A stretch of 64,000 bases of DNA from Deinococcales bacterium (GCA_025359505.1 JANYHH010000028.1:32-64031), one strand, 5' to 3'; positions 1 through 64,000 are shown, counted from the first letter of the stretch. Numbers and translations are program-made. The notes: a model not told the origin generated them from the letters alone.

Positions 1-17
1 ACGGTGAAGCTGACGGT

Positions 18-889
18 ATGTCAAGTACACGCCAGCTTCTCACCCAGCATACTCTCACCGACCTGTTCACCATCGTCTACGTCCTCACCGACGATTACTT
101 AAAGCAATCCAAATCCGCACAGCGTGTCACGCTTCCTATCTCGAGTCAGCAGAAAGGCAGTTACGCTTCTTGATCCCAAGCATGCACCTGACGGGCGGGA
201 TCGCGGAGTTGATGACCATCGCCCTCGTCGGTGAGCTGTTGCACCAATCCGAATCTGGCACTTGGTTTGCACTCGTTAAGAACGAGTTCAGCTCACTGTT
301 TCCGGTGCTGCCAGACATCACTCGGTTTTACCGAGTCCTAAAGAACCTCGAGCGGGTTTGGGCTGATTTTGCGTTGTGTCTTGCCAACAACGCTGATGAA
401 GATACAACGTACAGTACGGACTCTAAACCTTTACCGATCTGTAAGTTGAAACGCGCTCGTTTCCCAAGAGCCATGACCGAAGCCGCGAAGGGATTCAGTA
501 CAATGGGCGGTGTTCACGGCTTCAAATTGCATGCGGTAGTCAACAACGCGCAAGCCATTTGTCGCTTTGCCATCGTTCCAGCGAACGAAGCAGATGTCAC
601 AGTGGCACGGTGCTTAGTAAATGAGAACGAGGATGATCTGAGTCTGATCCTCGGGGATAAGGCGTACCTCGGCATGGGGATTTTCACGCCTTCTAAGCGC
701 AATGCGCGAACACCGCAACCATGGACGAAGTTGATGGACTCAGCGAGAAAGTTGATCGAAACGGTGTTCTCGAGTCTCACCAGAGCCAAGCATTTGGTGT
801 TGGGTCAATTGAATTCGTTCTGGTCGGTACGGGCAAGTGCGTGCAGGAAGATCGCGGCGCACAATCTTGGGTTGTGGCTGGGGCTATAA
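18..889 (+). pseudogene. IS982-family DDE transposase disrupted by a 38-bp insertion
   Basis: The ATG18 frame reads MSSTRQ...LFTIVYVLTDDYLK...QKGSYA and then stops. The 170..889 frame continues ELMTIALVGE...DSKPLPIC...GFKLH...LGDKAY...RKLIETVFS, which are IS982-type DDE motifs. Deleting 167-204 joins the two frames. Confidence 0.85.
167..204 (-). mobile_element. Mini-element copy A (38 bp)
   Basis: Minus strand reads GCGATCCCGCCCGTCAGGTGCATGCTTGGGATCAAGAA; similar to copies at 24776 and 43368; interrupts the transposase. Confidence 0.8.
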
Positions 890-948
890 CCCCCTAGCAC
901 TCGACGTAAACTGTGAAACTCGAGGTGCTACGAACTCGCACGAGGCGG

Positions 949-1983
949 TTACGGCTGGTGCTCGGGGGCATCCTCGCCGCTCTCGAGCACAGAGCGCAGG
1001 GCTGCTGGTGGAAGAAGCCGCGTCACGCGACGATTTTTATCGCGGTACATCACCGCATCGGCATCGCGCAGGCAGGCATCCAAATCCCGTCCATCCACAT
1101 CAGCCCAACCGGATGAAACGTTGGAGAATCCCTCCCGTACCGCTTCGCGCAAGTCCAGCATCTCACGGTTGGGGCCGTGCAGTCCGACGAACTCGTCGCC
1201 GCCGACGCGGTACAACGGGTCTGAAGTGGCGGCAGTGTAGACCTGCACGAATTGCAGCAGGTACTGATCACCCGCGTGATGCCCGTACTCGTCGTTGACG
1301 CGCTTCAAACCGTTGACATCCCACATGCTCAGGCAGCCAGAACCGCGCAAGTTCTGGAAATCCGCCTCGAGCGCGTAGCGGTTGCCCAGTCGGGTCAACG
1401 CATCGCGCATCGCCATAGATTTGAGTTCACTTTGTGCACGCTGCATGTTCATCAGCAGGTGATGGATGTACGCGCCGCACAGCATCGTCGTCAGCAGCAG
1501 CAGTAACCCAATCAGGGCATCTTCACTGAAGGTGTTTTCGCTCATGATAAGGATTGGCCAACTGCTGAGGGCGCAGACAATCGCGCCGCGCCAACCCCAG
1601 AGGAAACTGAGAAACAGCGCTGGTAAGCTCAAAATGGTCAGGCGGGCGAAAGCTGAGCTGAACAACCCACCGCTGTCCGTGACCAGCAGCGGAATGCAAA
1701 ACATAATGCCCAGCAGCGTCAAGCTGACGCCAAACATCGGACGTTGCCGGAAAATCAAAGCGCAGGCGGCCGTCCACAACAAAACGCTGCCAACGCGCCA
1801 CAACCCCGGATTTCCCCACGGGCTGACGAATGGCGATACCAAGTAGATCACCAAAAACGCAAACTCGGCGCTGAGCATCAGTCCCCACATTGAGCGCAGC
1901 AAGGTATCGCTGATCCGCTCCGTCATCAGTTCAGACGCAGCTTTGAGCGAATCCCTCGTATTGAACATACCGACACCGCGCAT
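949..1983 (-). CDS. Membrane-bound diguanylate cyclase (GGDEF)
   Basis: N-terminal hydrophobic helices; DALTRLGNR, DVNGLKRVNDEYGHHAGD and RVGGDEF motifs; GGAG upstream of ATG1983 (the ORF track starts at TTG2010). Confidence 0.9.
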   Translation of the reverse strand: MRGVGMFNTRDSLKAASELMTERISDTLLRSMWGLMLSAEFAFLVIYLVSPFVSPWGNPGLWRVGSVLLWTAACALIFRQRPMFGVSLTLLGIMFCIPLLVTDSGGLFSSAFARLTILSLPALFLSFLWGWRGAIVCALSSWPILIMSENTFSEDALIGLLLLLTTMLCGAYIHHLLMNMQRAQSELKSMAMRDALTRLGNRYALEADFQNLRGSGCLSMWDVNGLKRVNDEYGHHAGDQYLLQFVQVYTAATSDPLYRVGGDEFVGLHGPNREMLDLREAVREGFSNVSSGWADVDGRDLDACLRDADAVMYRDKNRRVTRLLPPAALRSVLESGEDAPEHQP

Positions 1984-2156
1984 GGAATCTCCCAGCGCTA
2001 TTGTAACCAATTCCCCTAATCGTCAGCAGGTCAAGTGACGCAAACGTTCGATTCGGCAGGCTAAAGTTTTGAGCCGATCAAAAGGTGCAAGACGAGAAAT
2101 CGTTTCAAATGACTTGGCAGAAAGCAAGTAGCAGCTCGAGGGACGTTATGTATGGT

Positions 2157-3128
2157 TCAGTAGTTGCGCTGCACGACCTGCATGCCGCCGGCCTCGAGCC
2201 AGTCGGTCAGTCCTGCCACGGCCGCTTTGACGCCGGGCGTGACGAGTGGGCTGCCGAACGACTCGAGACCCGCAATCGAGCGGCCTTCGCCTCGCCGTGA
2301 GACGCTGACCAGCGTTTCCTGCACGAAATCTGGCTCTTCGATGCGGGCCAGCACCACAAGCTTGTCTGGTCTGGTGTAACCCTCGAGCAGGATCACGGTG
2401 TACTCTGCGCCGCGCAGCACGGTTTTTTGGATGGGCTGAGTGGGAATATCTCCGGTGAGGATCGCGTGCGGCATGGGATCTCCTGAACTGCTGACTTTGA
2501 GCGGCTCGAAATCGGCTTGGCTCGAGGCGATTTTTTTGAAGCGGGCGTGGTTGATGCTGATGCCCATCGCTTGCCATTTCTGTGCGTACTTGGTTTGCAG
2601 TGCGGCGGCGGGCGGGGCAGTCTCGAGGATGTCAAAGAGCTTGGTGCTGCGAGCGTTCTCTAAAGCGAACTGGTAATACTCTGGGTGATCGGTGGTCAGC
2701 CACAGCTCGCCGCCAAGCTTCAAGCGCTGTGACAGCAGTTCAAATGTTTCAGTCCGCACGAAGCGGTTCTCCTCATGCTTGCCCTTGGGCCACGGGTCGG
2801 GGAAGTTGACGTACACGCGCTCCAAGCTGTCTGGCGGCAGGATATTGCGAATCAGGAATTCAGCGGCAACCCGAGTAACAATGCCACTTTGCACATGTGC
2901 AGCGCGGTACTTAGCCAAGGCCTTCTGCACGCTGACCCCGGAGATTTCCACGCCGAGGTAATTGACTGCTCCCTCCAACTGATGCTGCAACGCCCAGAAG
3001 TGACCGCCGCCGAAACCGACTTCCAAATGCAGCGGATTGGCGTTTTCAAACAAGCGCTGGCTCGAGTCGGGGTAGTGAAAATCGCTGTGTCTGAGGTAAC
3101 GCATGACTGGTGTTGGATGATGACCCAT
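2157..3128 (-). CDS. trmB: tRNA (guanine-N7)-methyltransferase with C-terminal extension
   Basis: LEVGFGGG, YLGVEIS, VNFPDPWPKGKHEENRF and LTTDHPEY motifs; the start could be ATG3104. Confidence 0.92.
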   Translation of the reverse strand: MGHHPTPVMRYLRHSDFHYPDSSQRLFENANPLHLEVGFGGGHFWALQHQLEGAVNYLGVEISGVSVQKALAKYRAAHVQSGIVTRVAAEFLIRNILPPDSLERVYVNFPDPWPKGKHEENRFVRTETFELLSQRLKLGGELWLTTDHPEYYQFALENARSTKLFDILETAPPAAALQTKYAQKWQAMGISINHARFKKIASSQADFEPLKVSSSGDPMPHAILTGDIPTQPIQKTVLRGAEYTVILLEGYTRPDKLVVLARIEEPDFVQETLVSVSRRGEGRSIAGLESFGSPLVTPGVKAAVAGLTDWLEAGGMQVVQRNY

Positions 3129-3187
3129 GCGGGGCCTTGAGTCAAGCGCTGGTGAGGTGTTACACTTCCCAGCGCTGTGAACGGTTG

Positions 3188-3262
3188 GGCCCCATCATCT
3201 AGCGGTTAGGATAACGCCCTTTCAAGGCGTGTACACGAGTTCAAGTCTCGTTGGGGTCACCA
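3188..3262 (+). tRNA. tRNA-Glu(TTC)
   Basis: Acceptor stem GGCCCCA/TGGGGTC, anticodon arm ACGCC-CTTTCAA-GGCGT, T-loop TTCAAGT, encoded CCA end. Confidence 0.97.
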
Positions 3263-3293
3263 AAAAACCCGCTCTTCACTGAAGCGGGTTTTT
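3263..3293 (+). terminator. Intrinsic terminator after the tRNA (possibly bidirectional)
   Basis: AAAAACCCGCT...AGCGGGTTTTT hairpin with A and T tracts. Confidence 0.8.
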
Positions 3294-3437
3294 CTTTAGC
3301 TCGAGCAGCGTTCAATCAATAATCCGCAATGTTTGCGAGTGCTGTGCTTACCGAGCACATCTGCTCGAGAATCAAGCAATCTCTCGAGGAACCGCGCTCT
3401 TACCTTTGCCTTTTGCCGACTTCTACGAGAAGTTTCG

Positions 3438-3764
3438 TCAGCGCATCATGTCCTCGAGAATCGTTGGGTGCTTGGCGACGTTCATCATCATGTCCAGACT
3501 CGAGATCGCCGCTGGCGGACACACGGCCACGAAGCGGTAGCGGCGCTGACCGCCGCTGCTGATGACCGAGCTGAGCAGCTTGACCTCCAAGGCGACGCTG
3601 CTTTCTATTGTTAAGTTCGGCAGTCCACGCGGGATTTGCACGTTGTCCGCGAGTTCAAAATGACCCGTGACCTCGCCGTTCTGCGCGTTCAGTTGGCGCA
3701 GCACGCAGGCGACCGTCTGAAAAACCACGCTATCGGAGCGCACGACCGCATCTTCGAGCTTCAC
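3438..3764 (-). CDS. Hypothetical protein (108 aa)
   Basis: ORF fills an intergenic gap; CATACT -10-like box 7 nt before the GTG start; no family recognised. Confidence 0.55.
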   Translation of the reverse strand: MKLEDAVVRSDSVVFQTVACVLRQLNAQNGEVTGHFELADNVQIPRGLPNLTIESSVALEVKLLSSVISSGGQRRYRFVAVCPPAAISSLDMMMNVAKHPTILEDMMR

Positions 3765-3865
3765 GAGTCCCAGTATGACACGGGCTGGAGGTGAGAGCAG
3801 TGGAAATCACGCTCCAAGCTGGGGCATACGATGCTTAAAGGTTGTGCCAGTTGGCGGACTGTCGA

Positions 3866-3894
3866 GGTGGGCGAACACACCGTTCGCACCCACC
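3866..3894. repeat. Imperfect REP-like hairpin downstream of smc
   Basis: GGTGGGCGAAC...GTTCGCACCCACC. Confidence 0.4.
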
Positions 3895-3965
3895 GAAAAT
3901 CTTGTCCTGCTCAGGGATCGCTCGAGTTGTGAAGCGACTCCAACACGGCTCGAGCGGGGAAATTT

Positions 3966-6900
3966 TCAGGCTTTTGCTAGCTCGGACGGCTCGTTTTTGA
4001 TGCTGAACGTGCGGCTCGTGCCGCTGGCATCGGTCGTTACGCCCCACAGCGCGTCGGCGATTTCCATCGTGGCTTTTTGATGCGTGACCAGAATGAACTG
4101 CGTGCCTTGATTGGCCAGCAAGCGCAAGAAATGCGTGAAGCGCCGGATGTTGGCTTCGTCCAGTGGCGCGTCCACCTCGTCCAGCACCGCCAAAGGTAAA
4201 CCCGCATCGTCGGCTGGGGCGCTTGCCAAGGCGAACAGGTACGCCAGCGCCGCCATCGTGCGCTCGCCCGCGCTGAGCAGGTGCAGGTTGCGGGTGCGCT
4301 TGCCCTTCGGCGTGACGCGCATTGCCAGCCCCTCGAGCGCCCCATCAGGGTCGCGCACCAGTTCAAGCTCGCCGTCGCCGCCGAGCAGTGAGGCAATGTA
4401 GGTTCTGAAGCTCGCGCCGACTCGAGCGATGCTCTCACCGAGCTTGGCGGTGACTTCGCGCTCCAACGTCTCCAGCGCCTCGCTCAGCTCAGTGACCGCT
4501 GCCCGAGCGTCGCTGACACCGTTTTCCAAATCCGTCAACGCTTGGGTTTCCAGCTCGTATTCTTCGGCCGCCAGCATGTTGACCGCGCCGATTTCGTCGC
4601 GGCGGGCTTTGATCTGCGTGACGCGCTGCGACCAGCCTCTGGGCGTGCCTTCTGGATCAGTGATCTCGAGCAAACTAGACAATGCCTGATCCCGTGCGTC
4701 TGGCTCGAGGTTCGGTAATAATTCAGTCAGCAGCGTTTCAAAATTCCCCTCGCGGCGGCTTTTGGCGTCCCGCGCCCGCTCCAAGGCTTCGCGCCCAGCG
4801 CTCAGCTCACGGCCTTGCGCGGCGACCACGCCCTCGAGACTGCGGCGCTCGGTTTCTAAACGCTCGAGTTCAGCGCGGGCCCCGCCGAGGTCGAGCGTCC
4901 GAGCGGCCGTTTCTAAGCGCTCGATCTCTGGGTTGGCGTGCAGCAGCTTCGCGCTCCACTCGGCTTCCAGACCAGCAATCGCCTCGAGCCGCGCATCAAT
5001 CGCGCCCCGGCGAACCGCGACTTGCTCGAGCCGCGCCACGGCTTGCGCGTAAGTGCGTTGCTGCTCCGCGTAGACCCGCGTTCGCGCCGTCGCGTCGCGC
5101 ACGGCTTCATCGCTCGAGCGTTCGGCATCTCGAGCGATAGTCACGGTCTGGCTGGTGCTGGCGAGCGCCCGTTCCAGCGGCTCGAGGTCGATCTGCTCTA
5201 CTCCGCCCAATGCGAGGCTGACGGCTTGCTGTGCGGCGAGGCGGGCGCTGAGGCTGGTCTGGCGCTGCTCCAAGCCTTCGATCCGCGTGTCGATCTGCAA
5301 CAGCGTCGCTCGGGTCGCTTCCAAGGTTTTACGCAGACCCACGACGCGCCCGTCGGTGCGCGTGACCGCTTCGCGTGAACTGGCGCTCTGCTCTTTTTCA
5401 TCGTTCAGCAGCTCCTCCGACTGAGCGAGGCTGGTTTCTAAGTCACTCAGTTCGCTTCTGGCTTCCTCGAGCCGCCGCGCATCGGCGAAGCTTTCCCCGG
5501 CATTGTCGCGCCCGCGCCCGCCGGTGACTGCGCCGCCGCTCTCCAAGAGTTCGCCGTCCAGTGTCACCAAACGCGGTCGGTCGCGGTACTGGCGGGTCAA
5601 AGCGAGCGCAGTCTCCAAATCGGCGACCAGCAAGGTCTCGCCGAATAAATTCTCCAGCACTGGCCCCAGTGCAGCGCCTTCGATGCCGATCAGACCAGCC
5701 GCGTACCCAAGCACGCCGCGCTCGGTAGCGATCGGCAGATTGCGCCGAGGGCGCACGCGCAGAATATCCAGCGGCAGAAACGTCGCCCGCCCGCCACCGC
5801 GTTTCAGTGATTCGATCACGCTGCGGGCGACCGCACCGCTTTGCACGACGATGTTTTCGGTGCGCCGCCCAAGGGCTGCGCCGATCGCAGTTTCAAATTG
5901 CTTGGGGACGCGCAGCAACTCCGAAACCGGCCCGATGATCCCAGCCACGCCGCTGTTCATCGCACGGCGCGGGCCGTCGGACAGGTAGGCTCTGGATTCG
6001 CGCAGCGTTTCCAAGCGCATCAATTCCTTAGCCAGCGGCGCTCGAGCACCGCGCAGCTCGTTGACCCGTCCGCCAACTTGTGCAATCCGCGCACTGATGC
6101 CAAGCGCTTCGCGCTCCAAGCGCTCGAGCAGCTTCGTGGCCGCCTCGAGTTCGCTCTTTGCTTCCTCGAGTTGCGGGCTAGACTCCGAGCGTTCTGCCCG
6201 AGCAACTTGCAGCTCACTGGCAATCTCCTCGAGCTGGTGCTGAGAAGCCTCGCGCTCGGTCGATTGGCGCGTCTGCGCCTCGAGCTGAGCGCGGTTGCTT
6301 TGCTCCAAGCGGTCGCGCTTGGCGCGAGCGTCAGCCAAATCCTTGCGGGCTTGCAGATCGGCTTGCTCGGCTGACCTGAGCGCTGTTTTCGCCCCCAGCA
6401 ACGCGGCCTCGAGCGCGGGCAGGTCATCGGCTGGCGCAATCGGTGGCTGCGGTGGCTCGAGGGTGGTCAGCGCCAAATTTTCAGTTTCCAAGCTCGTGCG
6501 CTCGTGGCGCAACGCGACGACGCTTTGATCGCCAGCACTCAAACGCTCGCGCAGCACGTTGGCCTCGCCGAGCAGACGCTCCGACTCGGCGCTCAGCCCA
6601 GCGAACGCCGCTTGCTGCCCTTCCCTGTTGACCCGCAACACTTCAAGCGCGGCGGTGGCCGCACTGATCGCGTCCGATGCAGCAGCAGCAGCGACCTCAG
6701 CCTCAGCGATCTCCAGCTCGAGCTTCGCCATCTCCGCTTGCAGCACGCGCACGCGCTGGCGCGAAAGGGCGGTCTCTAATTGTTGCTGCTCGAGCGTCAG
6801 ATTCGTCGATTCGCTGGCTGCCAGCGCCTCGGCTTCCAATTTGACGACGCGCAGGCGTTTGAGCACCGCCAAGTCCTCCGCCCGCTCCAAGTGAACCCGC

Positions 6901-7494: not shown

Positions 7495-7944
7495 TCACTC
7501 GGGCATCTCGAGGGTCGATTGCCGAGCATCTAGCATCTCGAGGTTTCGTTTCTCGAGCGTCTGCGTCTGAAGCTTCGGCTGCTCGAGTCCCTGCCGCTCA
7601 CGGTAGATCTGCATCGCGGCTTCCGACTCCTCGAGCGGGAACCTCAGCTCATTCGCCGCCATCTTCTCCAGCACCACCTTCTCGAGGTCAACGCCGTACT
7701 GCGAAGCGAGTTTGAGCAATAGCAACGTCACGTCCGCCAGCTCACCACCCAAGCGCTCTCGAGCGGCCGGATCAGGTGATTTATAGCCCTCGAGATGCAG
7801 CGCCTCGCGCATGACTTCGCCCAGTTCCTCCATCAAGTGCAGCGCGGTGTGGGCGGGCGATACCGCATCCCAACCGCGAGCCGCATCGAAATCCTCGAGC
7901 CGCCGTTGCAAGACCGCTAAGCTCGAGGCTACTGCTTCGGGCAC
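7495..7944 (-). CDS. MazG-like nucleotide pyrophosphohydrolase
   Basis: LMEELGEV...GELADV motif. Confidence 0.85.
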   Translation of the reverse strand: MPEAVASSLAVLQRRLEDFDAARGWDAVSPAHTALHLMEELGEVMREALHLEGYKSPDPAARERLGGELADVTLLLLKLASQYGVDLEKVVLEKMAANELRFPLEESEAAMQIYRERQGLEQPKLQTQTLEKRNLEMLDARQSTLEMPE

Positions 7945-8498: not shown

Positions 8499-9931
8499 CG
8501 GTTCGCGCCCTGAATCTGCGGTTTGAGGTATTCGTATAAGCCGTCCGCCAACGCTTGGGCCAAGCGACGCAGCGCGACTGGATCAGACAAGCGCGTGACA
8601 TCCTCGGCGTTTGAGAACCAGCCTAGATCGATCTGCAATGCCCCTTTAGGCGCGGCGCTCAGCATCAGCGCGTGATCGTGCGACAAGACCTGCGCCTCAC
8701 TGTCCGAGAGCGCCAGAATCCGAGCGCTGACGACATCGGCCAGCGCCTGCGACGCGGCTGAGCCGCTGATGAAACGCTCCAAGAGTGACTTATCGCTCTG
8801 CGAAGCGGTTTTCAGCAGCTCGCGCCCACCAGCGTAGATTCCGCTGACGGGCGCGTCCGGCGAGCGGTAGTAAATCTGCACGCCCTTGGCATTAGAGCCG
8901 GTCAGGGCTGAGGCATGCAAGGAAACGAAGACATCGGCTTGCAGGCTCGCCTCGAGCCGCTTGGCCAGACTGGGGTTGCTGTCGTCGTCGCGGGTGTAAG
9001 CGACTTTGACGCGCCCTTGCAGCGCCGCGCCGATCAACCGCGCCACGCGCAGCGTCAGGTCTTTTTCTTTCAGTGCCCCAGCCGTCACGCCCGCATCCGC
9101 GCCGCCGTGACCCGCGTCCAGCACGACGGTGATGACCCGCGCCTCGAGCGCGACGGGTTGGCGCTCAAAACGCGGGCCGACATCGATGACGATTCGCGCT
9201 GGCACGGCTTCCGTTCCCGCACGAGCGCTCTCAGCCGGCAATGCGAAGATGTTATAGCCACTGGTATCGCTCAACGGCACGCGCACCTCGAGCTTATTGC
9301 CGCTGGGTCTGACCGCCGCCGTTTTGACGAATTGCCCGTCGACTTGGTAATCGGTGATCTCGCCGCTGGTGTAGCGCAAATACACCACCAGATCGTTGCG
9401 CTCGATCCGCGAGGAGAAGCCCGTATCGCGGTTGACCTCGAGCACGAGGCGTTCAGAGCGCGTGGTTTTATCGGATTTCACCGCCAGCAGCTTGGCTTGA
9501 ACGGGTTCGACGATGTAGCTGCCGCTATTTTCCGAGAAGCTCGCGCCGATCGCTTCGGTCACGGTACGCACGGGCAGCAGCAACTGCCCGTTGCCGCGCC
9601 CGGCGGCCAAGCCAGCGCCGCGCACGCCGTTGATCTGCAACGCCTTGGTGTAGCGCGTCGCGGCTTCGTAAGCTCCACCCGCCAACTCAAGTTGCAAGAT
9701 TCGTCCGCCTTGGATCAGTGTGACCGCGTTGTCGCTGGTCTGGATGTCCAGCCCGAGCGCCCCAGCGAATTCAAAGGCGGGCGCATACGCCGCGCCGTTA
9801 TAGAGCGAGGCATTCAGTTTCACCCCGCCAACCTCGAGCGGCTTTTGCTGCACGGATTGGGCCAGCACGGTGATGCCCGCGATCACCGTCAGCGCGACCA
9901 GCCAACTCGAGGCTCGAGCAGGTGCGCTCAT
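8495..9931 (-). CDS. N-acetylmuramoyl-L-alanine amidase (Amidase_3)
   Basis: Signal peptide; VVLDAGHGG, EKDLTL, YTRDDD and FVSLHA motifs. Confidence 0.88.
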   Translation of the reverse strand: MSAPARASSWLVALTVIAGITVLAQSVQQKPLEVGGVKLNASLYNGAAYAPAFEFAGALGLDIQTSDNAVTLIQGGRILQLELAGGAYEAATRYTKALQINGVRGAGLAAGRGNGQLLLPVRTVTEAIGASFSENSGSYIVEPVQAKLLAVKSDKTTRSERLVLEVNRDTGFSSRIERNDLVVYLRYTSGEITDYQVDGQFVKTAAVRPSGNKLEVRVPLSDTSGYNIFALPAESARAGTEAVPARIVIDVGPRFERQPVALEARVITVVLDAGHGGADAGVTAGALKEKDLTLRVARLIGAALQGRVKVAYTRDDDSNPSLAKRLEASLQADVFVSLHASALTGSNAKGVQIYYRSPDAPVSGIYAGGRELLKTASQSDKSLLERFISGSAASQALADVVSARILALSDSEAQVLSHDHALMLSAAPKGALQIDLGWFSNAEDVTRLSDPVALRRLAQALADGLYEYLKPQIQGANR

Positions 9932-13999: not shown

Positions 14000-14035
14000 A
14001 GCGCCCCCTCGAGTCTCGAGGGGGCGCTGTTTTTT
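14000..14035 (+). terminator. Intrinsic terminator whose stem contains two CTCGAG sites
   Basis: AGCGCCCCCTCGAG-T-CTCGAGGGGGCGCT followed by GTTTTTT. Confidence 0.85.
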
Positions 14036-19705: not shown

Positions 19706-20323
19706 CTAGGGCGCGAGTCTCGAGCGTTGCCAGACCCCCTCTTGCAAGCTGTACGCGATGCGGTCGTGCAGCCGCGCTTTCCTGCCCTGCCAGAACTCCA
19801 TGTACTCGGGCGCGACCACGTACCCGCCCCAGTGCGCTGGACGCGGCACGGCGACCGGGTACTCGAGCCGCAACGCCGTCACTCGAGCCTCGAGTTCAGT
19901 GCGGGTCACGACTTGGCTCTGCGGGCTGGCGGCACTGGCGAGTTGGCTTTCCAAAGGGCGACTGGCGAAGTACGCATCAGACTCATCGCTCGAGACTTTA
20001 GCGATGCTGCCCTCGATCCGCACCTGCCGCTCCAAAGCCCCCCACCAGAAGCTCAGGCACACCGCGCCCGTCGCATTGATCTGTGCACCTTTGCGCGACT
20101 CGTAATTGGTGTAAAACGTCAAACCAGCCTCACTCAGTCCGCGCAGCAGCACCACGCGGCTCGAGGGTTTGCCGTTTTGAGCGACGGTGGAAACCGTCAT
20201 CGCGTTCGGTTCAATCTGGTCGCGGGCATCGTTGAGCCAAACCGCGAGTTGTTCTCTTGGGTTCTCGAGCATCTGAGCTTCATCCAATGTGCCGTGCGTG
20301 TAATCCATGCGGTTCTCGAGCAT
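19706..20323 (-). CDS. pdxH: Pyridoxamine 5'-phosphate oxidase
   Basis: EPNAMTVST, SRVVLLR, FYTNYESRKG, RQVRIEG, EFWQGRKARLHDR. Confidence 0.96.
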   Translation of the reverse strand: MLENRMDYTHGTLDEAQMLENPREQLAVWLNDARDQIEPNAMTVSTVAQNGKPSSRVVLLRGLSEAGLTFYTNYESRKGAQINATGAVCLSFWWGALERQVRIEGSIAKVSSDESDAYFASRPLESQLASAASPQSQVVTRTELEARVTALRLEYPVAVPRPAHWGGYVVAPEYMEFWQGRKARLHDRIAYSLQEGVWQRSRLAP

Positions 20324-20336
20324 TCATCAATATTAG

Positions 20337-20370
20337 CTCGAGGTTTGGGTGACGGATTGCAGGCTCGAGG
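20337..20370 (+). repeat. Direct repeat R1 flanking the TA cassette
   Basis: CTCGAGGTTTGGGTGACGGATTGCAGGCTCGAGG; 30 of 35 positions match 21096-21130. Confidence 0.8.
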
Positions 20371-20375
20371 GCGTT

Positions 20376-21037: not shown

Positions 21038-21095
21038 GCAAAGAGTTTATCACGCCAGAATTACCCGCCAAGCATCCCCACACAATGATTTGCAT

Positions 21096-43367: not shown

Positions 43368-43407
43368 TTCTTGACCCTGAAAGCAGCACCTGACGGGCTT
43401 GGGTCGC
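43368..43407 (-). mobile_element. Mini-element copy C (40 bp)
   Basis: Minus strand reads GCGACCCAAGCCCGTCAGGTGCTGCTTTCAGGGTCAAGAA; lies between vgrG and the PAAR gene. Confidence 0.78.
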
Positions 43408-43461
43408 TTCGTGCTCTCACTCCATTGCAAACCGCTGAGTTGTTTCCACTCGGTTTCCTCG

Positions 43462-43494
43462 AAAATGGTTGACATCAACCCCGTCAACCATTTT
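43462..43494 (-). terminator. Hairpin after vgrG (terminator or stabiliser)
   Basis: AAAATGGTTGAC-9nt-GTCAACCATTTT. Confidence 0.6.
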
Positions 43495-43504
43495 GAAATT
43501 TGCC

Positions 43505-45247: not shown

Positions 45248-45264
45248 GGGCAGTTACCGACTCT

Positions 45265-45942
45265 TTAGGCATTCGGGATCACCAGCACGGTTCCAGCCGA
45301 TAGCCGTCGCACGGCCGCCAAGTTATTCATCTCGGCGATGCTGCGCCACGCGCTCGTTTCACCCAAGGTTTTATACGCGATTAGTCCCAGCGTTTCGCCT
45401 TCTTGCACCGTCCACAGGCGCTCACCGCCGACCCCGCCCGAAGTTGGGTTCTGACTGGCCTGCGCGTCGCTGTCGTCCACCTGCGTAAAGGTCACGTTCA
45501 GCGTCGCCCGCACGGGCGTGCCATCGGCTAAAAAAAGCGTGTATTTGGCGCTGACGCTCTGCACGACGCTCTGGAAAACCACGCGGCGGCTTTCCTTGTT
45601 TTGCCCCCAGATGAACAAGACTTTGGCGGGGCGACCCTTCTTGGATTTTTTGTCTTTCAAAGTATCGTCGACTTTCATCAGATCAAAAATCTTTTTGGTG
45701 TGGACGCTGACATCCTTTTCAGAGGCTTCGTAAGTATCAAAAAACAATTCGACTTTCATCGTCGCGGGTTTACCGCTTTTAAATTCCAACTTGCTGGTGT
45801 TCTTGCCAGCCCCTTGCGGCGCTGTCCATTCGACGGTTTTCTCAATCGTGTATTCCTTGGGGTTGAACAGGCAATCGATCTTGTTGCCGGCCCCTTCACC
45901 CTCAAGGATTTCGATGCGGGCTTTGACGGGCGCTTCACTCAT
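45265..45942 (-). CDS. CIS tube-initiator protein with LysM domain (Afp7-like)
   Basis: FNPKEYT, LFFDT, GTPVRA, NPTSGG, C-terminal LysM (GETLGLIA...WRSIAEMN). Confidence 0.9.
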   Translation of the reverse strand: MSEAPVKARIEILEGEGAGNKIDCLFNPKEYTIEKTVEWTAPQGAGKNTSKLEFKSGKPATMKVELFFDTYEASEKDVSVHTKKIFDLMKVDDTLKDKKSKKGRPAKVLFIWGQNKESRRVVFQSVVQSVSAKYTLFLADGTPVRATLNVTFTQVDDSDAQASQNPTSGGVGGERLWTVQEGETLGLIAYKTLGETSAWRSIAEMNNLAAVRRLSAGTVLVIPNA

Positions 45943-45970
45943 GGTTCAACTCCTCTCACAGTCCACTCTT

Positions 45971-48900: not shown

Positions 48901-49036
48901 TTTGCGGAGCTGGCGCGGTCACACCAACGGCTCGCAAAGCGCTCGGCACGCCCTGACGCAACGCCAGTTTATGCGGGTCGTAGACGCTCCTCGCAAAGCG
49001 GCGGCTGGCGTTGAGACGCTCGAGCAGGGCGGTCAT
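45971..49036 (-). CDS. Large Pro/Ala/Ser-rich eCIS core (DUF4157) protein
   Basis: RRFLEPLVG...AEAATQDGAV...GLLAHELIHAAQQ (HExxH) embedded in low-complexity sequence. Confidence 0.82.
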   Translation of the reverse strand: MTALLERLNASRRFARSVYDPHKLALRQGVPSALRAVGVTAPAPQIMNASRSVAPRALDNAAPRVIAVPVVAREAAAPLNTVPLNTVPLEPQTVANLESQESVNLEQQGVADLELSDATAISTPPLEVASDSGPEFATLAQLALTEPILGSDDGVIANQPLEQPVEAAFAETFLEQPSVQTEPIAVQPSALLEPSVPANAPTSSVTETRLAAEQPVSPPMPRASAAPQGTVQERLDAALAGVSFAQISPEPEPAEAAAATLESAVAASDQPLEPQLSALDPALSRDVPTVAEPIADALMANALTANESVPLEVMPVSPVPEVVAPNVPAPVSLEVAAPPAADLFAPSTTPIQPTIRGRVIEEFQARPPRNMPPRDLKPEVAPEAPIDETPRRSSEEWARLLRQRFAQPGDEAFDDAPITASPPAAAPLEIAPLEIAPFEAATSDSSAPTTIPLEPSALFAAAPLEGVAAVSSPPAIAVDESEPLGASAIRERSQAALLAIPEDMSQRTPHDWGMALIRRYASVDEATAIGIEAYRDPNDPTPLPAPSEPALPRTARVVSSVSSPSSTVPSSTASNTIASSGLIASMPLESAPPESALSPARRFVAPRTTVSSTAPSLGAITPVQAASARAQPAAAQPSPAPLEPLTLKNQDFAALEPVPLEGEWMTRAAVPERLIADALSSSDESAATPILEPVRLSGATRRFLEPLVGFDPNEVSVYTGETASRVTRDFRAEAATQDGAVLLPDASNLETPAQLGLLAHELIHAAQQQRSAGSRPPDSRLEPASGSLAEDAAAERPVSAQPSLETPRSFESVSRRFVPAVGSSDTRSTASPSSAVEPSSIVQPSNAVRQSRAPLLTGVSSFASEEERALAAEARVVQIAGAEPLSADPTVLSAAASWNGLPAPWESLPALGAPSGDDSASDSGVVSLIGAGLSPQGWGANATTTNPAGYGGSVSSSGLGSSASSGSSASSASPQAAEVGRELPEAGGAAGGGGPDLEQLAKQVYDVLKRRLQTDRRRGGL

Positions 49037-49104
49037 GACGAACTCCGTTTCAGTTTAATATTTGCGTTGAGGACGATGTTGAGCAGGCGAAATAAAATAA
49101 AATC

Positions 49105-49539
49105 CTATTTTTTAGCGAGCTGCAAACCGCTGTGCGCCAACTCGAGCGACTCGATGGCGGCCGCGTTGCCGCTGGCTTGGTACTGCGGGCCCGTCCATTT
49201 GACGGGGTACGCGCCGTCGTAATTCCAGCGCATCAACTCGTCGCCTTTAGAGTTAAACATCACGATAGAGACGTTCTTGCGCTCAATTTTGCCCAGTGCC
49301 ACATTGCTGATCCAGTCCAAAAAGGCTTTGGAGTTGGTCATGCCACGCTTCAAAGTCAAATTGCCGACTTTCGTGCGGCCGGGCAGTTTATGCACGAAGC
49401 TGTTGACACCGCCCTCGGTGTATTCAAAAACCTCGATCTCGAGCTGCAAACCGCTGGCTTCGGTGAACAGGGCCTGCTCTCCCGTCACGCCTTCAATGGA
49501 GACGTAAAAGCGGCTAGCGGCGTAAGAGTCTTCAGGCAT
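49105..49539 (-). CDS. Phage tail tube protein (gp19-like), copy 2
   Basis: FTEASGL, EGGVN...HKLPG, LTLKRG, YPVKWTGP, IESLELAH. Confidence 0.93.
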   Translation of the reverse strand: MPEDSYAASRFYVSIEGVTGEQALFTEASGLQLEIEVFEYTEGGVNSFVHKLPGRTKVGNLTLKRGMTNSKAFLDWISNVALGKIERKNVSIVMFNSKGDELMRWNYDGAYPVKWTGPQYQASGNAAAIESLELAHSGLQLAKK

Positions 49540-49575
49540 TCTCAGTCACCTCCAGTGAAAATAGCTCGAGCCTTC

Positions 49576-49630
49576 AGCTTCATTTCTTCAGCTTCATTTC
49601 TTTAGCTTCATTTCTTTAGCTTCGATTTCT
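49576..49630. repeat. 14-bp tandem repeat, about 4 copies
   Basis: AGCTTCATTTCTTY units. Confidence 0.85.
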
Positions 49631-49726
49631 AGACTTGGCGCTCTGACCTCTGGCTTTCAAACGCCGCGCTTCCTCGAGCATCAGCTTGTAGACGGCTGCC
49701 GCAAGCTTTTCAACATCAACGCTCAT
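49616..49726 (-). CDS. 36-aa small protein absent from the ORF track
   Basis: MSVDVEKLAAAVYKLMLEEARRLKARGQSAKSRNRS; ATGA overlap with the upstream stop; resembles the C-terminus of the DUF4157 protein. Confidence 0.7.
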   Translation of the reverse strand: MSVDVEKLAAAVYKLMLEEARRLKARGQSAKSRNRS

Positions 49727-50073
49727 GGCGCTCCCAGATCCAGCTCAAAATTCGTACCGCAGTTCGGACAGCGCGTTTCGATCACGCTCCCCAAGGTGTT
49801 CAGTTGCAAATACACATCCTGCAAATGCGCGTAATCGCTGCTGAACAGCCCCTCGATCACCGCGACCGGCACGGGCGAGATGCTGCCCAAGCGGGTCACG
49901 ACGCGGCTTAAAAGCAGCAGCCCCAAATACAACTCGTTGAGCTTGACTCGAGGGTCGCTCAAAGGCTCAACCTCGTCCCGCGCTGTGGCTAAGCGCATCA
50001 CGCCGCGCTGATGAACGTTGCCCGCATCATCGACGTAACCCCTCGGCAAGACGAATTCAAATTCTGTTTGCAT
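49723..50073 (-). CDS. Conserved eCIS tail-assembly-like protein
   Basis: TEFEFVLPRGYVD, GVMRLATARDE, LSRVVTRLG, CPNCG. Confidence 0.85.
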   Translation of the reverse strand: MQTEFEFVLPRGYVDDAGNVHQRGVMRLATARDEVEPLSDPRVKLNELYLGLLLLSRVVTRLGSISPVPVAVIEGLFSSDYAHLQDVYLQLNTLGSVIETRCPNCGTNFELDLGAP

Positions 50074-50134
50074 AGTGTGTTCGCATAGTGGTTCGCATAA
50101 TGCCTCAGGGGTCTAGCCTCGAGTTCACAAAACG

Positions 50135-50165
50135 GTTCGAGGGCGAAATTGACTCGCCCTCGAAC
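50135..50165 (-). terminator. Hairpin after the major tube gene
   Basis: GTTCGAGGGCGA-7nt-TCGCCCTCGAAC, followed by CGTTTT on the minus strand. Confidence 0.65.
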
Positions 50166-50172
50166 GCTGGGA

Positions 50173-50613
50173 TCACTTCTCGCGCTTGTAGGCTTCAAAG
50201 ACAATCGTGATGTCTTCAATGCCAACCTCGTTGCTCTTGGCATCCAGCGTCGGGCCGGTCAGCTTGCTGCACCACGCCGCCTCGAGCGTCCAACGGGCGA
50301 CCTCTTTGTTATCGGTGCTGTACGCGACCACGGAGACGTTCTTGCGGGCTTCCTCGATCTTGCCCTCTTCGACCAGCTTGCGCCATTTCCACAAATCGAG
50401 GTTGTCGGACAGACCGCGCTTGAAGGTGATCGGCGTGAGCTTCATCGTACCGGGGATTTGCTTTTGAATGACCTTGCCATCCTTACCGCTGTACGGCGTG
50501 GTGATGACGTTGTTCTCGGTCGTGAAACCGCTGGCTTCACGAAAATGCGCGTTGGTCACACCGGGCACGTCGACCATGAAATAACTTGCATTGAGTGGAT
50601 CTTTCTCTGCCAT
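50173..50613 (-). CDS. Major phage tail tube protein (gp19-like)
   Basis: FREASG, ITFKRG, LWKWR, RKNVS, WCSKLTGPTLDA. Confidence 0.93.
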   Translation of the reverse strand: MAEKDPLNASYFMVDVPGVTNAHFREASGFTTENNVITTPYSGKDGKVIQKQIPGTMKLTPITFKRGLSDNLDLWKWRKLVEEGKIEEARKNVSVVAYSTDNKEVARWTLEAAWCSKLTGPTLDAKSNEVGIEDITIVFEAYKREK

Positions 50614-50694
50614 AAGTCACCTAACTTTCGTATTGATTGCGCGTCTCGAGTCCCGAGGGCGCGAGAGGGTCGAGTTGTTTGAAATCGGTAAAAA

Positions 50695-52254
50695 CTACGC
50701 GCCGCCACCAGAAAACTGCGAGAACCTAAAGATCACGAACTCGGCAGGCTTGACGGGCGCGATACCGATTTCCACATAGAGCCGACCGAGGTCTCGAGTT
50801 TCGGGTGGGTTGATCTCCTCGTCGCATTTGACGAAAAACGCTTGCGAGGCGGTCGCGCCGAACAGTGCGCCGTCGCGGTAGACCGTGCCTAAGAAGGCGT
50901 TGATATCGCGCTTGACGCGCTCCCAGAGGTTCATGTCGTTTGGCTCGAAGACGATCCATTGCGTGCCGCGCTCGACGGACTTTTCAACGTAGTTGAACAA
51001 GCGCCGCACGTTGATGTAGCGCCACGCTGGATCGCTAGACAGCGTGCGAGCGCCCCAGACGCGCACGCCCATGCCGGTGAAGGTGCGGATGCAGTTGATG
51101 CCACTGGGGTTGAGGGTGTCCTGCTCGCCCTTCGTGACCTGCGTGACTGGATCGAGCGCCCCGCGCACGATTTCATTGGCGGGGGCTTTGTGAACGCCGC
51201 GCTCGCCGTCGTTTCTGGCCCAGATGCCCGCCATGTGGCCCGATGGTGGAATCGCCAACGGCTTACCATCCGAACCGCTGACTTTGACCCACGGGTAGTA
51301 CAGCGCCGCCGCTTGCGAGTCGTAATTAGCGTCCTTCTCGCGCCACTTTTTGACTTCCTGCGGCGTCATGTCTGGCAACGGGTCAATGATCGCCATTCGC
51401 CCGCGCACGCGCTCGCAGTGCGACATCATCGCCAGTTGCACGGCTTTTACGCCGTCCTTGTCGATCATGCCCTGCATGTAAGCGCTCATCAAATCGGGCG
51501 CGACAAGTATCGTCACGTCTTCGGCGATCTCGAGTCCCTCGAGACCTGTACGGGTGCTGACATCGCCGACGAAATGCGTGCTTTGCACCATCGGCAGGCT
51601 CGAGCCTTGAACAGCTTTGATCACGAAGCTGCCCAACTCCGGGGCGCGTTCAGCGGGTGCGCCCGCGCCTTTTTCCTCGGTGATCGTGATCAGTTGGCTC
51701 TGCGCGACAGCCTCGGCGACCGCCCGCGATTTCGCACCCTTGGCGGGTTTGCCCAAGACGACGTTCTCAAAGACTTCCTCGAGCGTGCCCATCTTGACCC
51801 GCAGCGTGAACGCGCCCTCGTCCACATCGTCCGATGGCGGGCGCGTGATCTCCACGCTGACGTCGCTCGAGGCAGCGCCCTTGGTGGTGATCGTCAGGCT
51901 GGGCACGGCCTTGGAAGCGCGGCTCGGGAGTTGCGCCGAAGCGGATTTCTCTTCTTTGCCACCGGTCGCCACCACGCGGGTCACGTAGCAGCGCGTACCA
52001 CCATTGTTGAAGTACCCGTAGATGCTGTAAGAAAGGAACGCGTTGGGCATGTGCGGGTTTTTACTGCCACCCTCCTCGAGCGCCCCGAAGGTATCGACAT
52101 ACTGCTGCCACGAAGTCACCAGCATGGGGGTGTTGGCCGGGCCGCTCGGGGCAAATCCGACAAAAGCCGCCATGGCCGTGCCAACACCCTCGATGGGCCG
52201 CGGCCCCGAGTTGACCTCTTCGATGTAAACGCCCGGCGATAGGTACTCTGGCAT
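50695..52254 (-). CDS. Contractile tail sheath protein
   Basis: MPEYLSPGVYIEEV, YYPWV, RGVHKAPAN, VWGARTL, WRYINVRR, PVKPAEFVIFR; AAGGAG ribosome-binding site. Confidence 0.96.
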   Translation of the reverse strand: MPEYLSPGVYIEEVNSGPRPIEGVGTAMAAFVGFAPSGPANTPMLVTSWQQYVDTFGALEEGGSKNPHMPNAFLSYSIYGYFNNGGTRCYVTRVVATGGKEEKSASAQLPSRASKAVPSLTITTKGAASSDVSVEITRPPSDDVDEGAFTLRVKMGTLEEVFENVVLGKPAKGAKSRAVAEAVAQSQLITITEEKGAGAPAERAPELGSFVIKAVQGSSLPMVQSTHFVGDVSTRTGLEGLEIAEDVTILVAPDLMSAYMQGMIDKDGVKAVQLAMMSHCERVRGRMAIIDPLPDMTPQEVKKWREKDANYDSQAAALYYPWVKVSGSDGKPLAIPPSGHMAGIWARNDGERGVHKAPANEIVRGALDPVTQVTKGEQDTLNPSGINCIRTFTGMGVRVWGARTLSSDPAWRYINVRRLFNYVEKSVERGTQWIVFEPNDMNLWERVKRDINAFLGTVYRDGALFGATASQAFFVKCDEEINPPETRDLGRLYVEIGIAPVKPAEFVIFRFSQFSGGGA

Positions 52255-52618
52255 GACACTCCTTGTCCGCGCCGCTCGAGGGTTTGAGGTCAATACTCGA
52301 GGACGCTCCCACGCTTAGATCAACGGGGTCGAATGTGGGCTTTGGGTTGAAATAGCGTCGCTTGACTCATTCAAGATGCTACACGACCCGCAAAAAAGTG
52401 TGGCGAAACGCGCCAAAAAACCTGTGCTGAACGCGAGAAATCGCATCACATTTCTCAGCTCGAGGGCTTGAGTGAATTCGCTCGCCGATGCTCAAATCGG
52501 GCCACTGACCTCGAGACCGCTCCCGAGAAAGCGCTTGGTGTTACGCATGAAACCTGAGTCTGGTCTGTATAATGTTGACAGAGATTCGCGCCGCAGTTTT
52601 TGGCGCTCGAGGTCAATC

Positions 52619-62809: not shown

Positions 62810-62954
62810 GGCAACTCGAGCGGTGATGTCAACATGTCCTCGAGCCGATCCATAGCCTTGAGTTTACTCCGTTCGAGGCGTAGTCACCAAGCTAAAGACC
62901 GCAATGCTGGACTCGAGAAGTGAATCAAAGATGTACTGCACGCATAAATTGACG

Positions 62955-62988
62955 ATATGTTGACAACGTAACGTTTCGGTGCTATATT
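62955..62988 (+). promoter_or_regulatory. Sigma70-type promoter of ssb overlapped by an RDRM-like (DdrO) site
   Basis: TTGACA (62960) - 17 bp - TATATT (62983) with an extended TG; ATATGTTGACAACGTAA at 62955-62971. Confidence 0.7.
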
Positions 62989-63070
62989 CATTGGCAGACG
63001 CCTCTCGAGCGTCGCACTTAACGGCAACTAGGTCCCGCACATCTCGCACAGAACCAAGGAGAACAAGATT

Positions 63071-63874
63071 ATGGCTCGAGGTATCAACAGTGTTTTACTG
63101 ATCGGCGCACTCACCCGTGACCCAGAGTTGCGCTACACCCCGAACGGCGCAGCCGTACTGAGCATCACCGTGGCTGGCGATAGTGTCGTCACCGACCTCG
63201 GCGGCGATGTCCGCAGCTTGCCGTGGTATCAGCGCGTCGAGTTAGTTAGCCGCAGTGCTGAAACGCTGCAAAATCAGCTCAAAGCGGGCAGCAGCGTACT
63301 GGTCGAAGGCAAACTGGATTACCAAAGCTGGGAAAACGAGCAAGGCGAGCGCCGCAGCAAGGTGATCGTCCGAGCCAACCGCATCGACCCACTCGCACCG
63401 AACGATCGCAGTGAGCAGATCATCACCGATAAAGTCGGCGGTTATCGTTTACTGGACGCGATCAACCAGACCGTCATCAGCGGCAATCTGGCTCGTGACC
63501 CCGTGATCCGCCACACGCAGAACGGGCATTCCGTCGCCAGCTTCGCGGTCGCCGTTACGGAGAGCTGGAAGGACGTGCAGGGCGAGTGGCAGCAAAAGCC
63601 GCATTACATCGACGTGACGCTGTGGCACGGCTTAGCTGACGCCGCCAGTGGACTTCAAAAGGGCGATCCAGTGATGATCTCCGGGCGCTTGACCAACGAC
63701 TCGTGGACGGACGCCAGCGGGCAAAAACGCTACAGCACGAAGCTCGAGGCGGAGCGCATGGAACTGCTGCAACGCCGCCTGCAGGCGGAAGCGCAACAGC
63801 CAGCCGCACCGCTCGAGCCAGAACCAGTCGCCTTACCAAAAGCAGCCAAGCCACGCAACCGCGCCGCCGCGTGA
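63071..63874 (+). CDS. ssb: Single-stranded DNA-binding protein with two OB folds
   Basis: MARGINSVLLIGALTRDPELRYTP; second fold NQTVISGNLARDP; AAGGAG ribosome-binding site. Confidence 0.93.
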   Translation: MARGINSVLLIGALTRDPELRYTPNGAAVLSITVAGDSVVTDLGGDVRSLPWYQRVELVSRSAETLQNQLKAGSSVLVEGKLDYQSWENEQGERRSKVIVRANRIDPLAPNDRSEQIITDKVGGYRLLDAINQTVISGNLARDPVIRHTQNGHSVASFAVAVTESWKDVQGEWQQKPHYIDVTLWHGLADAASGLQKGDPVMISGRLTNDSWTDASGQKRYSTKLEAERMELLQRRLQAEAQQPAAPLEPEPVALPKAAKPRNRAAA

Positions 63875-64000
63875 CGGCCGTGCTGCACAGCGCTTCAACC
63901 TCGTGGGGAGCGTCAACCAGCGCCCCCTCGAGCGCCACGCAAATCGCCAGCATCACACGCGGCGCTCGGCAAGACGAGTATCAACACCTGCTGCTCGAGT
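63871..64000 (+). CDS. Possible partial ORF coupled to ssb
   Basis: GTGA overlap with the ssb stop; frame open to the window end. Confidence 0.3.
   Translation, partial: MTAVLHSASTSWGASTSAPSSATQIASITRGARQDEYQHLLLE

Follow-up and report, generated by a model that had tools for sequence, protein, structure and literature searches.

The window, the whole stretch of DNA analysed here, comprises 64,000 nucleotides of contig C21 of a Deinococcales genome coded G000 (4,230,927 bases in 127 contigs, 59.5% GC, 91.8% complete), and its features are listed in Table 1. The subject of this analysis is the palindrome CTCGAG, which occurs in the window 430 times (6.7 per kb), in genes in all frames and in intergenic DNA. 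Dinucleotide-preserving shuffles of the window yielded a mean of 27.8 sites (sd 4.8, maximum 41) and none of 100 shuffles reached the observed count. A previous interpretation made from the sequence alone (the sequence-only reading) had counted 27 sites within positions 1-5000 and had described a similar density across the window, with sites in all frames and between genes. Our recount gave exactly 27 starts in that segment against ~1.6 expected from base composition, every 2-kb bin of the window held 5-22 sites (Table 1), and the frame counts and non-coding density reported below agree with the rest of that description.

Table 1 Features of the 64,000-nt window and the CTCGAG sites associated with them.
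Feature	Position	Strand	Observations
Whole window	1..64000		430 sites, 6.7 per kb; 27.8 expected; 5-22 per 2-kb bin
tRNA gene	3188-3259		0 CTCGAG inside
Stretch without open reading frame of at least 150 aa, downstream of the tRNA gene	3260..3965		7 sites, starting at 3300, 3364, 3383, 3453, 3499, 3921 and 3949
SMC housekeeping gene, 1187 aa	3966..7529	-	25 sites in 3,564 bp; Pfam SMC_N and SMC_hinge
Four-site cluster	7507..7587		Spacings of 30, 15 and 30 bp (multiples of three)
Pair CTCGAGNCTCGAG, spacing 7	9906..9918		Like arrangement at 14008-14020 and 19882-19894
Baseplate_J gene	40323-42335		In contractile-injection-system-like cluster
VgrG-like spike gene	43505-45247		In contractile-injection-system-like cluster
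1021-aa protein with eCIS core domain	45971-49036		In contractile-injection-system-like cluster
Tail sheath gene	50695-52293		In contractile-injection-system-like cluster

Across the whole of G000 there are 27,140 CTCGAG sites, corresponding to one per 156 bp (~6,400 per Mb) or 3.85% of all bases, and the word ranks first by count among all hexamers. The observed/expected ratio for CTCGAG was 20.0, 15.8 and 11.5 under Markov models of order 0, 1 and 2, and was still 3.9 at order 3, in which tetramer counts, including those of TCGA, are taken into account; CTCGAG was the top hexamer at each of these orders. The ratio of 1.22 obtained at order 4 is circular because 89% of CTCGA pentamers fall within CTCGAG. 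Inside the palindrome lay 64% of TCGA tetramers, and the remaining 15 NTCGAN words had ratios of 0.24-1.85; TCGA outside CTCGAG is at expectation. The 18 one-letter variants of the palindrome had ratios of 0.20-1.36. In none of the 1,496 overlapping 5-kb windows of the genome did the count fall below 7 (mean 32.2, sd 8.0), and the longest stretch devoid of CTCGAG measured 3,118 bp. The order 0 and order 1 figures both exceed the genome-wide enrichment of at least about 15-fold by which highly iterated palindromes are recognized.

Open reading frames (ORFs) were called crudely, from stop to stop with a minimum of 100 aa and greedily by length, which gave 3,690 ORFs covering 89% of G000, and a filter requiring GC3 minus GC2 above 0.1 kept 3,323 and dropped 367 of them; because the calls are crude, the set designated 'non-coding' takes in small genes. 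Coding sites were distributed over the three frames as 12,788 (CTC GAG, frame 0, 61%), 3,053 and 5,013. A synonymous shuffle within each gene, preserving both protein and codon usage, retained 4,099 sites, leaving an excess of 5.1-fold overall and of 3.7-, 19.9- and 9.9-fold by frame, and codon permutation retained 1,703 (12.2-fold excess). Density was 10.4 per kb outside ORFs versus 5.9 per kb in coding DNA, and in the 485,578 bp of non-coding DNA the excess reached 36.6-fold (order 0) or 23.1-fold (order 1). In this same DNA the nine classes of one-letter variants were found at 0.44-1.93 times expectation, with the C-to-T decay products highest and no class emptied; the deamination product CTTGAG/CTCAAG, at 1.89-fold, was the second commonest variant. 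The sequence-only reading was to be abandoned if the enrichment disappeared after correction for codon usage and for TCGA. Since 5.1-fold remains after the synonymous shuffle and 3.9-fold at order 3, it does not disappear.

The palindrome has left a clear imprint on the proteome of G000, in which Leu-Glu is the most over-represented dipeptide (18,797 occurrences versus 7,548 expected, 2.49-fold), whereas Glu-Leu, with 7,848 occurrences, stands at 1.04-fold. CTCGAG encoded 68% of the Leu-Glu pairs, 6.75 times the expectation from codon usage, and the alternatives CTGGAG and CTCGAA were used at 0.11 and 0.24 times theirs. The tripeptides PLE (2.75-fold) and LER (4.19-fold) and the dipeptide SS (1.57-fold) were also in excess. 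Of the peptides that the sequence-only reading had singled out, LE, PLE and SS are therefore enriched, whereas AR is not (1.00-fold proteome-wide). About 11,000 Leu-Glu pairs are in surplus, and it is very probable that the proteome has been dragged along by the pressure for CTCGAG; at least one site is present in 3,250 of the 3,323 ORFs.

The persistence of individual sites was assessed against 520 kb (~10%) of G001, a congener with a 5.1-Mb single-contig chromosome, with which DNA synteny around the window was discarded as a basis for comparison, only the MiaB gene having aligned. One-way best hits produced 277 pairs, 267 with a unique G000 partner, and the 233 pairs with at least 50% identity were used (256,878 aligned nt, 71% identity, with 51% of four-fold sites identical). 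The proportion of G000 sites that were also CTCGAG in G001 was 35.6%, 20.4% and 31.2% by frame, and control hexamers with at least 60 occurrences gave medians of 23.3%, 24.6% and 25.4%. CTCGAG thus ranked 335 of 398, 124 of 364 and 243 of 355 (percentiles of ~84, 34 and 68), and conservation above that of the control words was not observed between the two genomes. At 934 conserved Leu-Glu places CTCGAG was used in 63.6% and 48.0% of cases, and in both genomes at 37.0% of places versus 30.5% if the choices were independent; a kappa-like measure of shared codon choice was 0.36 versus a control median of 0.20. By frame, just 6.4%, 6.5% and 3.6% of the orthologous hexamers were exactly one letter off CTCGAG, below every control (medians of ~30%, minima of 7.6-8.9%). 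Frame-0 density fell as protein conservation rose (Spearman -0.17, p 0.01), the least conserved genes having 4.74 sites per kb and the most conserved 2.98. These comparisons indicate that individual CTCGAG sites turn over and that the genome-wide density is kept.

Analysis of the sequences flanking the sites in G000 revealed only a G at position -1 (0.43) and a C at +1 (0.44), and no longer consensus, positions -12 to -2 and +2 to +12 being near background base frequencies. Spacings between sites followed a geometric law with a three-base ripple, and with bins of 250 bp to 10 kb the site counts had variance-to-mean ratios of 1.0-2.4 (G000) and 0.8-1.0 (G001); the spacing is near-random (near-Poisson). 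Throughout G000 a spacing of 6, which would make GAGCTC, never occurred (0 versus 167 expected), and a spacing of 7 was frequent (275 versus 166 expected). Spectral analysis of a single 400-kb stretch of G001, whose length does not suffice for the longer of the 10-90 kb periods, gave no peak above the 95% shuffle threshold. Density reached 15.7 per kb in the first 30 bp past stop codons, its highest value, and 10.8 per kb over the 60 bp preceding starts, with gene bodies at ~5.5 per kb. A hairpin or terminator function was considered and rejected, as palindromic extension of the site was below the expectation for independence and sites at spacing 7 are unable to form a loop.

Restriction-modification (R-M) genes with atypical codon usage lay in stretches with 0-3 CTCGAG per kb, as did defence islands and low-GC accessory genes. 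The 5-kb windows of G000 with the fewest sites encode a KAP NTPase, the components of a GTPase-associated conflict system, and a fucosidase together with a low-GC sugar transporter. Also among them are genes for an S-layer protein and for a giant repeat adhesin; in these two, protein constraint is a likelier cause of low density than import. The GTPase-associated conflict system has atypical codon usage and 1-3 sites per gene, and is on these grounds probably a recent import; it comprises GAP1-N1, DO-GTPase1, DO-GTPase2 and GASH, accompanied by a trypsin-EAD1 protein (G000:C54 ~89,800-96,500; L322:3833-10523). In all probability imported DNA starts out site-poor, and conserved genes are limited in their sites by protein constraint. 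CTCGAG density separates resident from imported DNA in genomes of this family, which aids binning.

Genomes related to G000 were next surveyed; their genome, genus and family labels are coded, family names other than Thermus are putative, and related genomes are not independent observations. No rRNA was retrieved by a 16S search of the G000 assembly (91.8% complete), and the MiaB-like protein of the window was 71-79% identical to those of Deinococcales metagenome-assembled genomes (MAGs), 61-66% to those of Deinococcus and 53-58% to those of Trueperaceae MAGs. CTCGAG density was 4,300-6,800 per Mb throughout the family, whose 19 genomes represent 5 genera and are 57-94% complete, and it was 6.4 and 7.8 per kb at two family loci of 47% and 55% GC. 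Deinococcus loci, of which four were compared (5.7-7.3 kb), had 0-1 site each. The excess is a lineage trait and is independent of GC over the range of 47-61%.

Among 251 Deinococcota genomes the abundance of CTCGAG was graded. In a large Deinococcus-like genus (92 genomes) the density, 9-270 sites per Mb, was no higher than expected, and a Thermus-like genus (30 genomes) had 630-1,560 per Mb, approximately as many as of the reversed word GAGCTC. Other putative Thermaceae genera, presumably Meiothermus and allies, had 1,400-3,500 per Mb and some putative Trueperaceae genomes 2,000-2,600. Two outliers belonged to the Deinococcus-like family: G253, of 52% GC, with 24,536 sites in 3.5 Mb (7,010 per Mb) spread evenly over 7 contigs, and G196, with 13,562 sites in 3.8 Mb (3.5 per kb). 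G197, assigned to the same GTDB genus as G253, had only 683 sites in 2.3 Mb (5 contigs; 297 per Mb, 0.30 per kb). The proteins of the two are only 71-75% identical for the two genes compared. In the first 50 kb of named plasmids we counted 45 sites in pTT27 of Thermus thermophilus HB8, 63 versus 17 expected (3.7-fold) in pMESIL01 of Allomeiothermus silvanus, and 8 versus 17 expected in MP1 of Deinococcus radiodurans. Viral contigs with three closely spaced sites (80 loci with DNA among the matches listed) were mostly of 64-72% GC and also rich in GAGCTC, unlike the family.

The bases flanking CTCGAG differ between lineages. In the Thermus-like genus nearly all sites were embedded in CCTCGAGG, with CC..GG flanks (1,768 of 1,966 in G022, 1,818 of 2,203 in G026, and 39 of 45 in pTT27), as were all 34 sites in sampled DNA of G022. 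Outside that genus, 213 of 422 sites in G196 had the octamer. This octamer accounted for 0.17-3.9% of the sites in the Deinococcales family versus ~6% expected, and for 1 of 59 and 2 of 100 in two putative Trueperaceae genomes (G019 and G220), where GCTCGAGC was favoured. Within the family, its avoidance varied from 47 of 27,140 sites in G000 to 910 of 23,515 in G001. TCGA itself is rare in the Thermus-like genus and nearly confined to CCTCGAGG (34 of 35 in 40 kb of G022), and 45 of the 49 TCGA in 50 kb of pTT27 were inside CTCGAG, 39 of these in CCTCGAGG.

The sequence-only reading had anticipated a cognate methyltransferase, by analogy with HIP1 (GCGATCGC), the highly iterated palindrome of cyanobacteria. 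We found no conserved candidate: none of the five families searched (PF07669, PF02384, PF01555, PF00145 and PF02086) appears to contain a conserved cognate methylase. The methylases of G000 comprise one type I system, two type ISP, two MmeI-like and two long helicase-linked or Eco57I-class proteins, one TaqI/BseCI-like enzyme, three C5 genes and three N6_N4 genes, and the complete chromosome of G001 has far fewer, with type I genes, a single type ISP, a single C5 gene and two Dam-class genes. C5 methylases were present in 18 of the 19 family genomes, and the 18 compared were mostly 25-38% identical. That of G001 lies within a site-poor island, and both it and the C5 gene of G196 contain no CTCGAG and are therefore recent imports. 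No C5 match was obtained in G003 (21,883 sites, 91% complete), and in G196 neither N6_N4 nor Dam-class genes were matched besides its imported C5 gene. G197 had no match to PF00145, PF02384 or PF01555 and only a weak Dam-class fragment; this coincidence of no excess with none of the main methylase families is suggestive, in one small genome.

Two individual methylases of G000 were rejected as the agent. The best match of the TaqI-like enzyme in 30 relatives was only 32% identical and, with no close ortholog, it does not explain a family-wide trait. The Dam-class gene common to G000 and G001 (71% identity) matches PDB 7M6B (E 2.9e-90), the N4-cytosine methylase M.CbeI, whose target we take to be GGCC, and is present in 8 of the 19 family genomes. 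Regarding the former enzyme (Eco57I and TaqI_C domains; G000:C34:10706-12427, L090:3707-5431), which G001 lacks, its gene is followed by a 307-aa ORF with no Pfam match (L090:5469-6392), and the two may form a restriction system acting on a word with a TCGA core; TTCGAA is low in G000 (0.24-fold). Regarding the latter, GGCC stands at 0.33-fold in G000. The XhoI nuclease family was found in none of the 19 family genomes and in 1 of 12 others, in a search that did not extend to other CTCGAG nuclease folds; in G021, from another family, an XhoI-family nuclease adjoins an N6_N4 methylase. For Vsr the outcome was the same, with none among the 19 and one among the 12. ComEC and DprA were encoded in the five genomes tested (5/5) and also in G197.

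HIP1 is among the closest described parallels. Both are short palindromes that exceed expectation at least 15-fold, occur in every frame as well as in non-coding DNA, mark a whole lineage save for exceptions, and have lineage-specific extensions and hundreds to thousands of copies per Mb. A hexamer precedent among highly iterated palindromes also exists, GGCGCC of Calothrix PCC 7103; a published account gives an observed/expected ratio of 15.5 in 19,301 nt of Calothrix D253, slightly below PCC 7103, and HIP1 densities of 300-2,700 per Mb (PMC4390886). CTCGAG differs in being another word in another phylum, in its higher density of 6,400 per Mb, in that no conserved orphan methylase was found in the five families searched, and in its strong distortion of the proteome. 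According to another study, HIP1 sites are conserved above controls and periodic (PMC5861425), unlike CTCGAG, which was not conserved above controls and showed no period in 400 kb. The HIP1-like character claimed by the sequence-only reading thus holds for a lineage-wide, DNA-level hyper-iteration of a palindrome comparable in size to HIP1, and is not supported for the link to a methylase.

On the sequence patterns, CTCGAG seems to behave more like the uptake signal sequences (USS) of Pasteurellaceae and the DNA uptake sequences (DUS) of Neisseriaceae than like HIP1. It shares with them thousands of genic and intergenic copies, fewer under protein constraint, turnover, lineage dialects and encoded competence genes (ComEC, DprA). 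It departs from them as a six-base palindrome with a weak preference at two flanks instead of an asymmetric motif of 9-12 bases, as ~eight times denser, and in that the competence genes also occur in a relative without the excess. Repetitive extragenic palindromes and miniature inverted-repeat transposable elements differ by their extended consensus, none being found around the CTCGAG core. CTCGAG is the recognition word of the XhoI, PaeR7I and BsuMI R-M systems, but the targets of such systems are normally avoided, as GAGCTC is here, and CTCGAG is 20-fold enriched with no XhoI-family match in the 19 genomes. In E. coli, Dcm together with Vsr very-short-patch repair biases the frequencies of CCWGG-related words genome-wide. 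The present effect is far larger, and the family has no Vsr (0/19), no conserved C5 methylase and no depletion of the variant derived from T:G mismatches.

Restriction avoidance, the opposite of the behaviour of CTCGAG, is also seen in these genomes. GGCGCC (20 copies, counted on two strands), GAGCTC (18), GGTACC (24), CTGCAG (46), CAGCTG (52) and GCGCGC (64) are nearly absent from G000, which is ordinary avoidance of restriction targets. The avoided set differs in the 520-kb sample of G001, in which GTCGAC and GACGTC were found 0 times each versus 169 expected. GAGCTC was present in at most 25 copies in 16 of the 19 family genomes, and SacI-family nucleases matched in 6 of 19 and in 0 of 12 others, one of them adjoining a C5 methylase.

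Taken together, these observations indicate, with a probability of roughly 0.9 in our estimation, that the palindrome CTCGAG is genuinely hyper-iterated in an uncultured Deinococcales family and is held by a DNA-level, genome-wide pressure that is indifferent to position; the effects on the proteome and on imported and conserved genes proposed above are included in this estimate. Such a pressure would act on all resident DNA and favour fixation of any change that completes CTCGAG, opposed by protein constraint and with sites coming and going, and the 23-37-fold excess in non-coding DNA would correspond to a scaled gain-over-loss fixation bias S of ~3.1-3.6 (about e^3). The excess is not explained by any known enzyme system found here. 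Of the four processes put forward by the sequence-only reading, the weakest candidate is methyl-directed or mismatch-specific repair, and uptake, recombination and protein binding remain.

As to the nature of the pressure, we lean tentatively, at rather less than even odds, towards biased uptake or recombination acting as a molecular drive, the explanation put forward for DNA uptake sequences. Under it, a sequence-specific recognizer, which would be dimeric because CTCGAG is palindromic, would prefer CTCGAG-bearing DNA in uptake or in recombination between relatives, and site-rich fragments would then replace site-poor alleles whichever letter differs. The lineage-specific flanks (GC..GC in the Deinococcales family, CC..GG in the Thermus-like genus) would represent dialects of the recognizer. 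This drive is preferred because of the distortion of the proteome, the peak density in the least constrained DNA, the random spacing and the flank dialects. Several considerations weigh against it. It is suggested by patterns in the sequence and no recognizer was found; the presence of ComEC and DprA in G197 deprives the competence genes of discriminating value; and the kappa-like value above the control median suggests that some persistence remains at the level of sites. Known uptake sequences are non-palindromic, 9-12 bases long and ~eight times sparser, and to our knowledge DNA uptake in Thermus has no sequence preference. All the patterns are, moreover, equally expected under diffuse selection, and drive and selection are inseparable here.

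Diffuse positive selection for density is the rival that we regard as possible, if rather unlikely: sites would be interchangeable, each of small benefit as a binding or marking site (with or without methylation), bound for instance by a nucleoid protein or recognized as a self-mark in defence or repair. A function-first reading of this kind has been proposed for HIP1, for which selection and a nucleoid role are argued (PMC5861425). It accommodates the values of S, the turnover with density kept, the scarcity of sites under protein constraint, the minimum of 7 sites in every 5-kb window and the shared codon choice at conserved Leu-Glu places. Less easily reconciled with it are the lack of conservation above controls and of a period in the 400 kb analysed, both conservation and periodicity being part of the evidence for HIP1, the random instead of regular spacing, and peaks of density in the least constrained DNA and not at a functional landmark. 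Selection would also need to maintain ~27,000 sites, each of weak effect, in the face of an evident cost in protein sequence, and no conserved methylase or binding protein was identified. Methylation-linked repair of the very-short-patch type, in which a CTCGAG methylase and a mismatch endonuclease or glycosylase would turn near-sites into sites and mend decayed ones, was the lead of the sequence-only reading and is discussed for HIP1 by Elhai (PMC4390886). Despite the wealth of methylases in the family (C5 in 18/19) and the absence of the three main families from G197, which lacks the excess, we consider it improbable: Vsr was found in none of the 19 genomes, the C5 genes (25-38% identity) are not orthologous, those of G001 and G196 being imported, G003 has no C5 match, and G196 manages with one imported C5 gene and no N6_N4 or Dam-class match. 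Moreover, CTTGAG/CTCAAG is not depleted (1.89-fold), all variant classes behave alike, and a 36-fold excess is hard to reach by repair specific to one type of mismatch.

We attach next to no weight to a by-product of codon usage, of Leu-Glu-rich proteins or of a general TCGA excess. The share of frame 0 among coding sites (61%), the order 4 ratio and the near-equality of CTCGAG and GAGCTC in the Thermus-like genus, as a codon effect predicts, would suit it, but the order 4 figure is circular, non-coding DNA is the densest (36-fold), and the excess is greatest in frames 1 and 2 (19.9- and 9.9-fold). The asymmetry between Leu-Glu and Glu-Leu, TCGA at expectation outside the word, and an excess that extends from 47% to 61% GC are equally at odds with it. 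The chance that a dispersed repeat, a miniature mobile element or an artefact of assembly, binning or vector accounts for the sites is similarly negligible; only the high copy number speaks for it. The sites have one weakly preferred base per side and lie in nearly all ORFs, they abound throughout the family (19/19 genomes, one of them a single-contig chromosome) as well as in G253, and contigs from four other public runs cover the stretch of the window. Parts of this stretch are present in seven runs, with about 2,969 differences.

A more specific proposal, which we put forward as speculative and think unlikely on present evidence, is that an undescribed self-DNA recognition system of Deinococcota might use CTCGAG as its word and a dimeric protein as its reader, conferring specificity in uptake or recombination. 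Its dialects would be CCTCGAGG for Thermus and CTCGAG with GC flanks for the Deinococcales family and the Trueperaceae-like genomes, the word having been lost or counter-selected in Deinococcus. If true, a drive resembling that of uptake sequences would for the first time be known outside Proteobacteria, and it would be the densest on record, with Leu-Glu as the top dipeptide. Hyper-iterated words such as HIP1 and uptake sequences are poorly understood, and selection versus neutral drive is still argued for HIP1. CTCGAG provides an independent case, in another phylum, with another word, a higher density and a measurable protein cost. No report linking its abundance to Deinococcota or to iterated palindromes was found in the literature, supplements such as methylome tables not being covered. 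The phylum also offers a gradient, from depletion in Deinococcus through intermediate values in Meiothermus-like Thermaceae (3.7-fold in the A. silvanus plasmid) to 20-36-fold in the Deinococcales family, as well as a sharp contrast between G253 (7,010 per Mb) and G197 (297 per Mb) within one GTDB genus, and it includes cultured organisms.

Some further features of the genome and the window were recorded. The most enriched word of G000 that does not overlap CTCGAG is TGATCG/CGATCA (8,642 copies, 4.67-fold), and the palindromes TGATCA (0.64-fold) and CGATCG (0.55-fold) are low. In the window, the contractile-injection-system-like gene cluster extends from 39305 to 52293 with an ordinary CTCGAG density, and a second sheath gene is located on contig C29 (L326:1071-2654). 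Positions 20324-21115 of the window (792 bases) are skipped by related contigs from other public runs, which have ~30 other letters instead, suggesting an insertion here or a deletion in those contigs.

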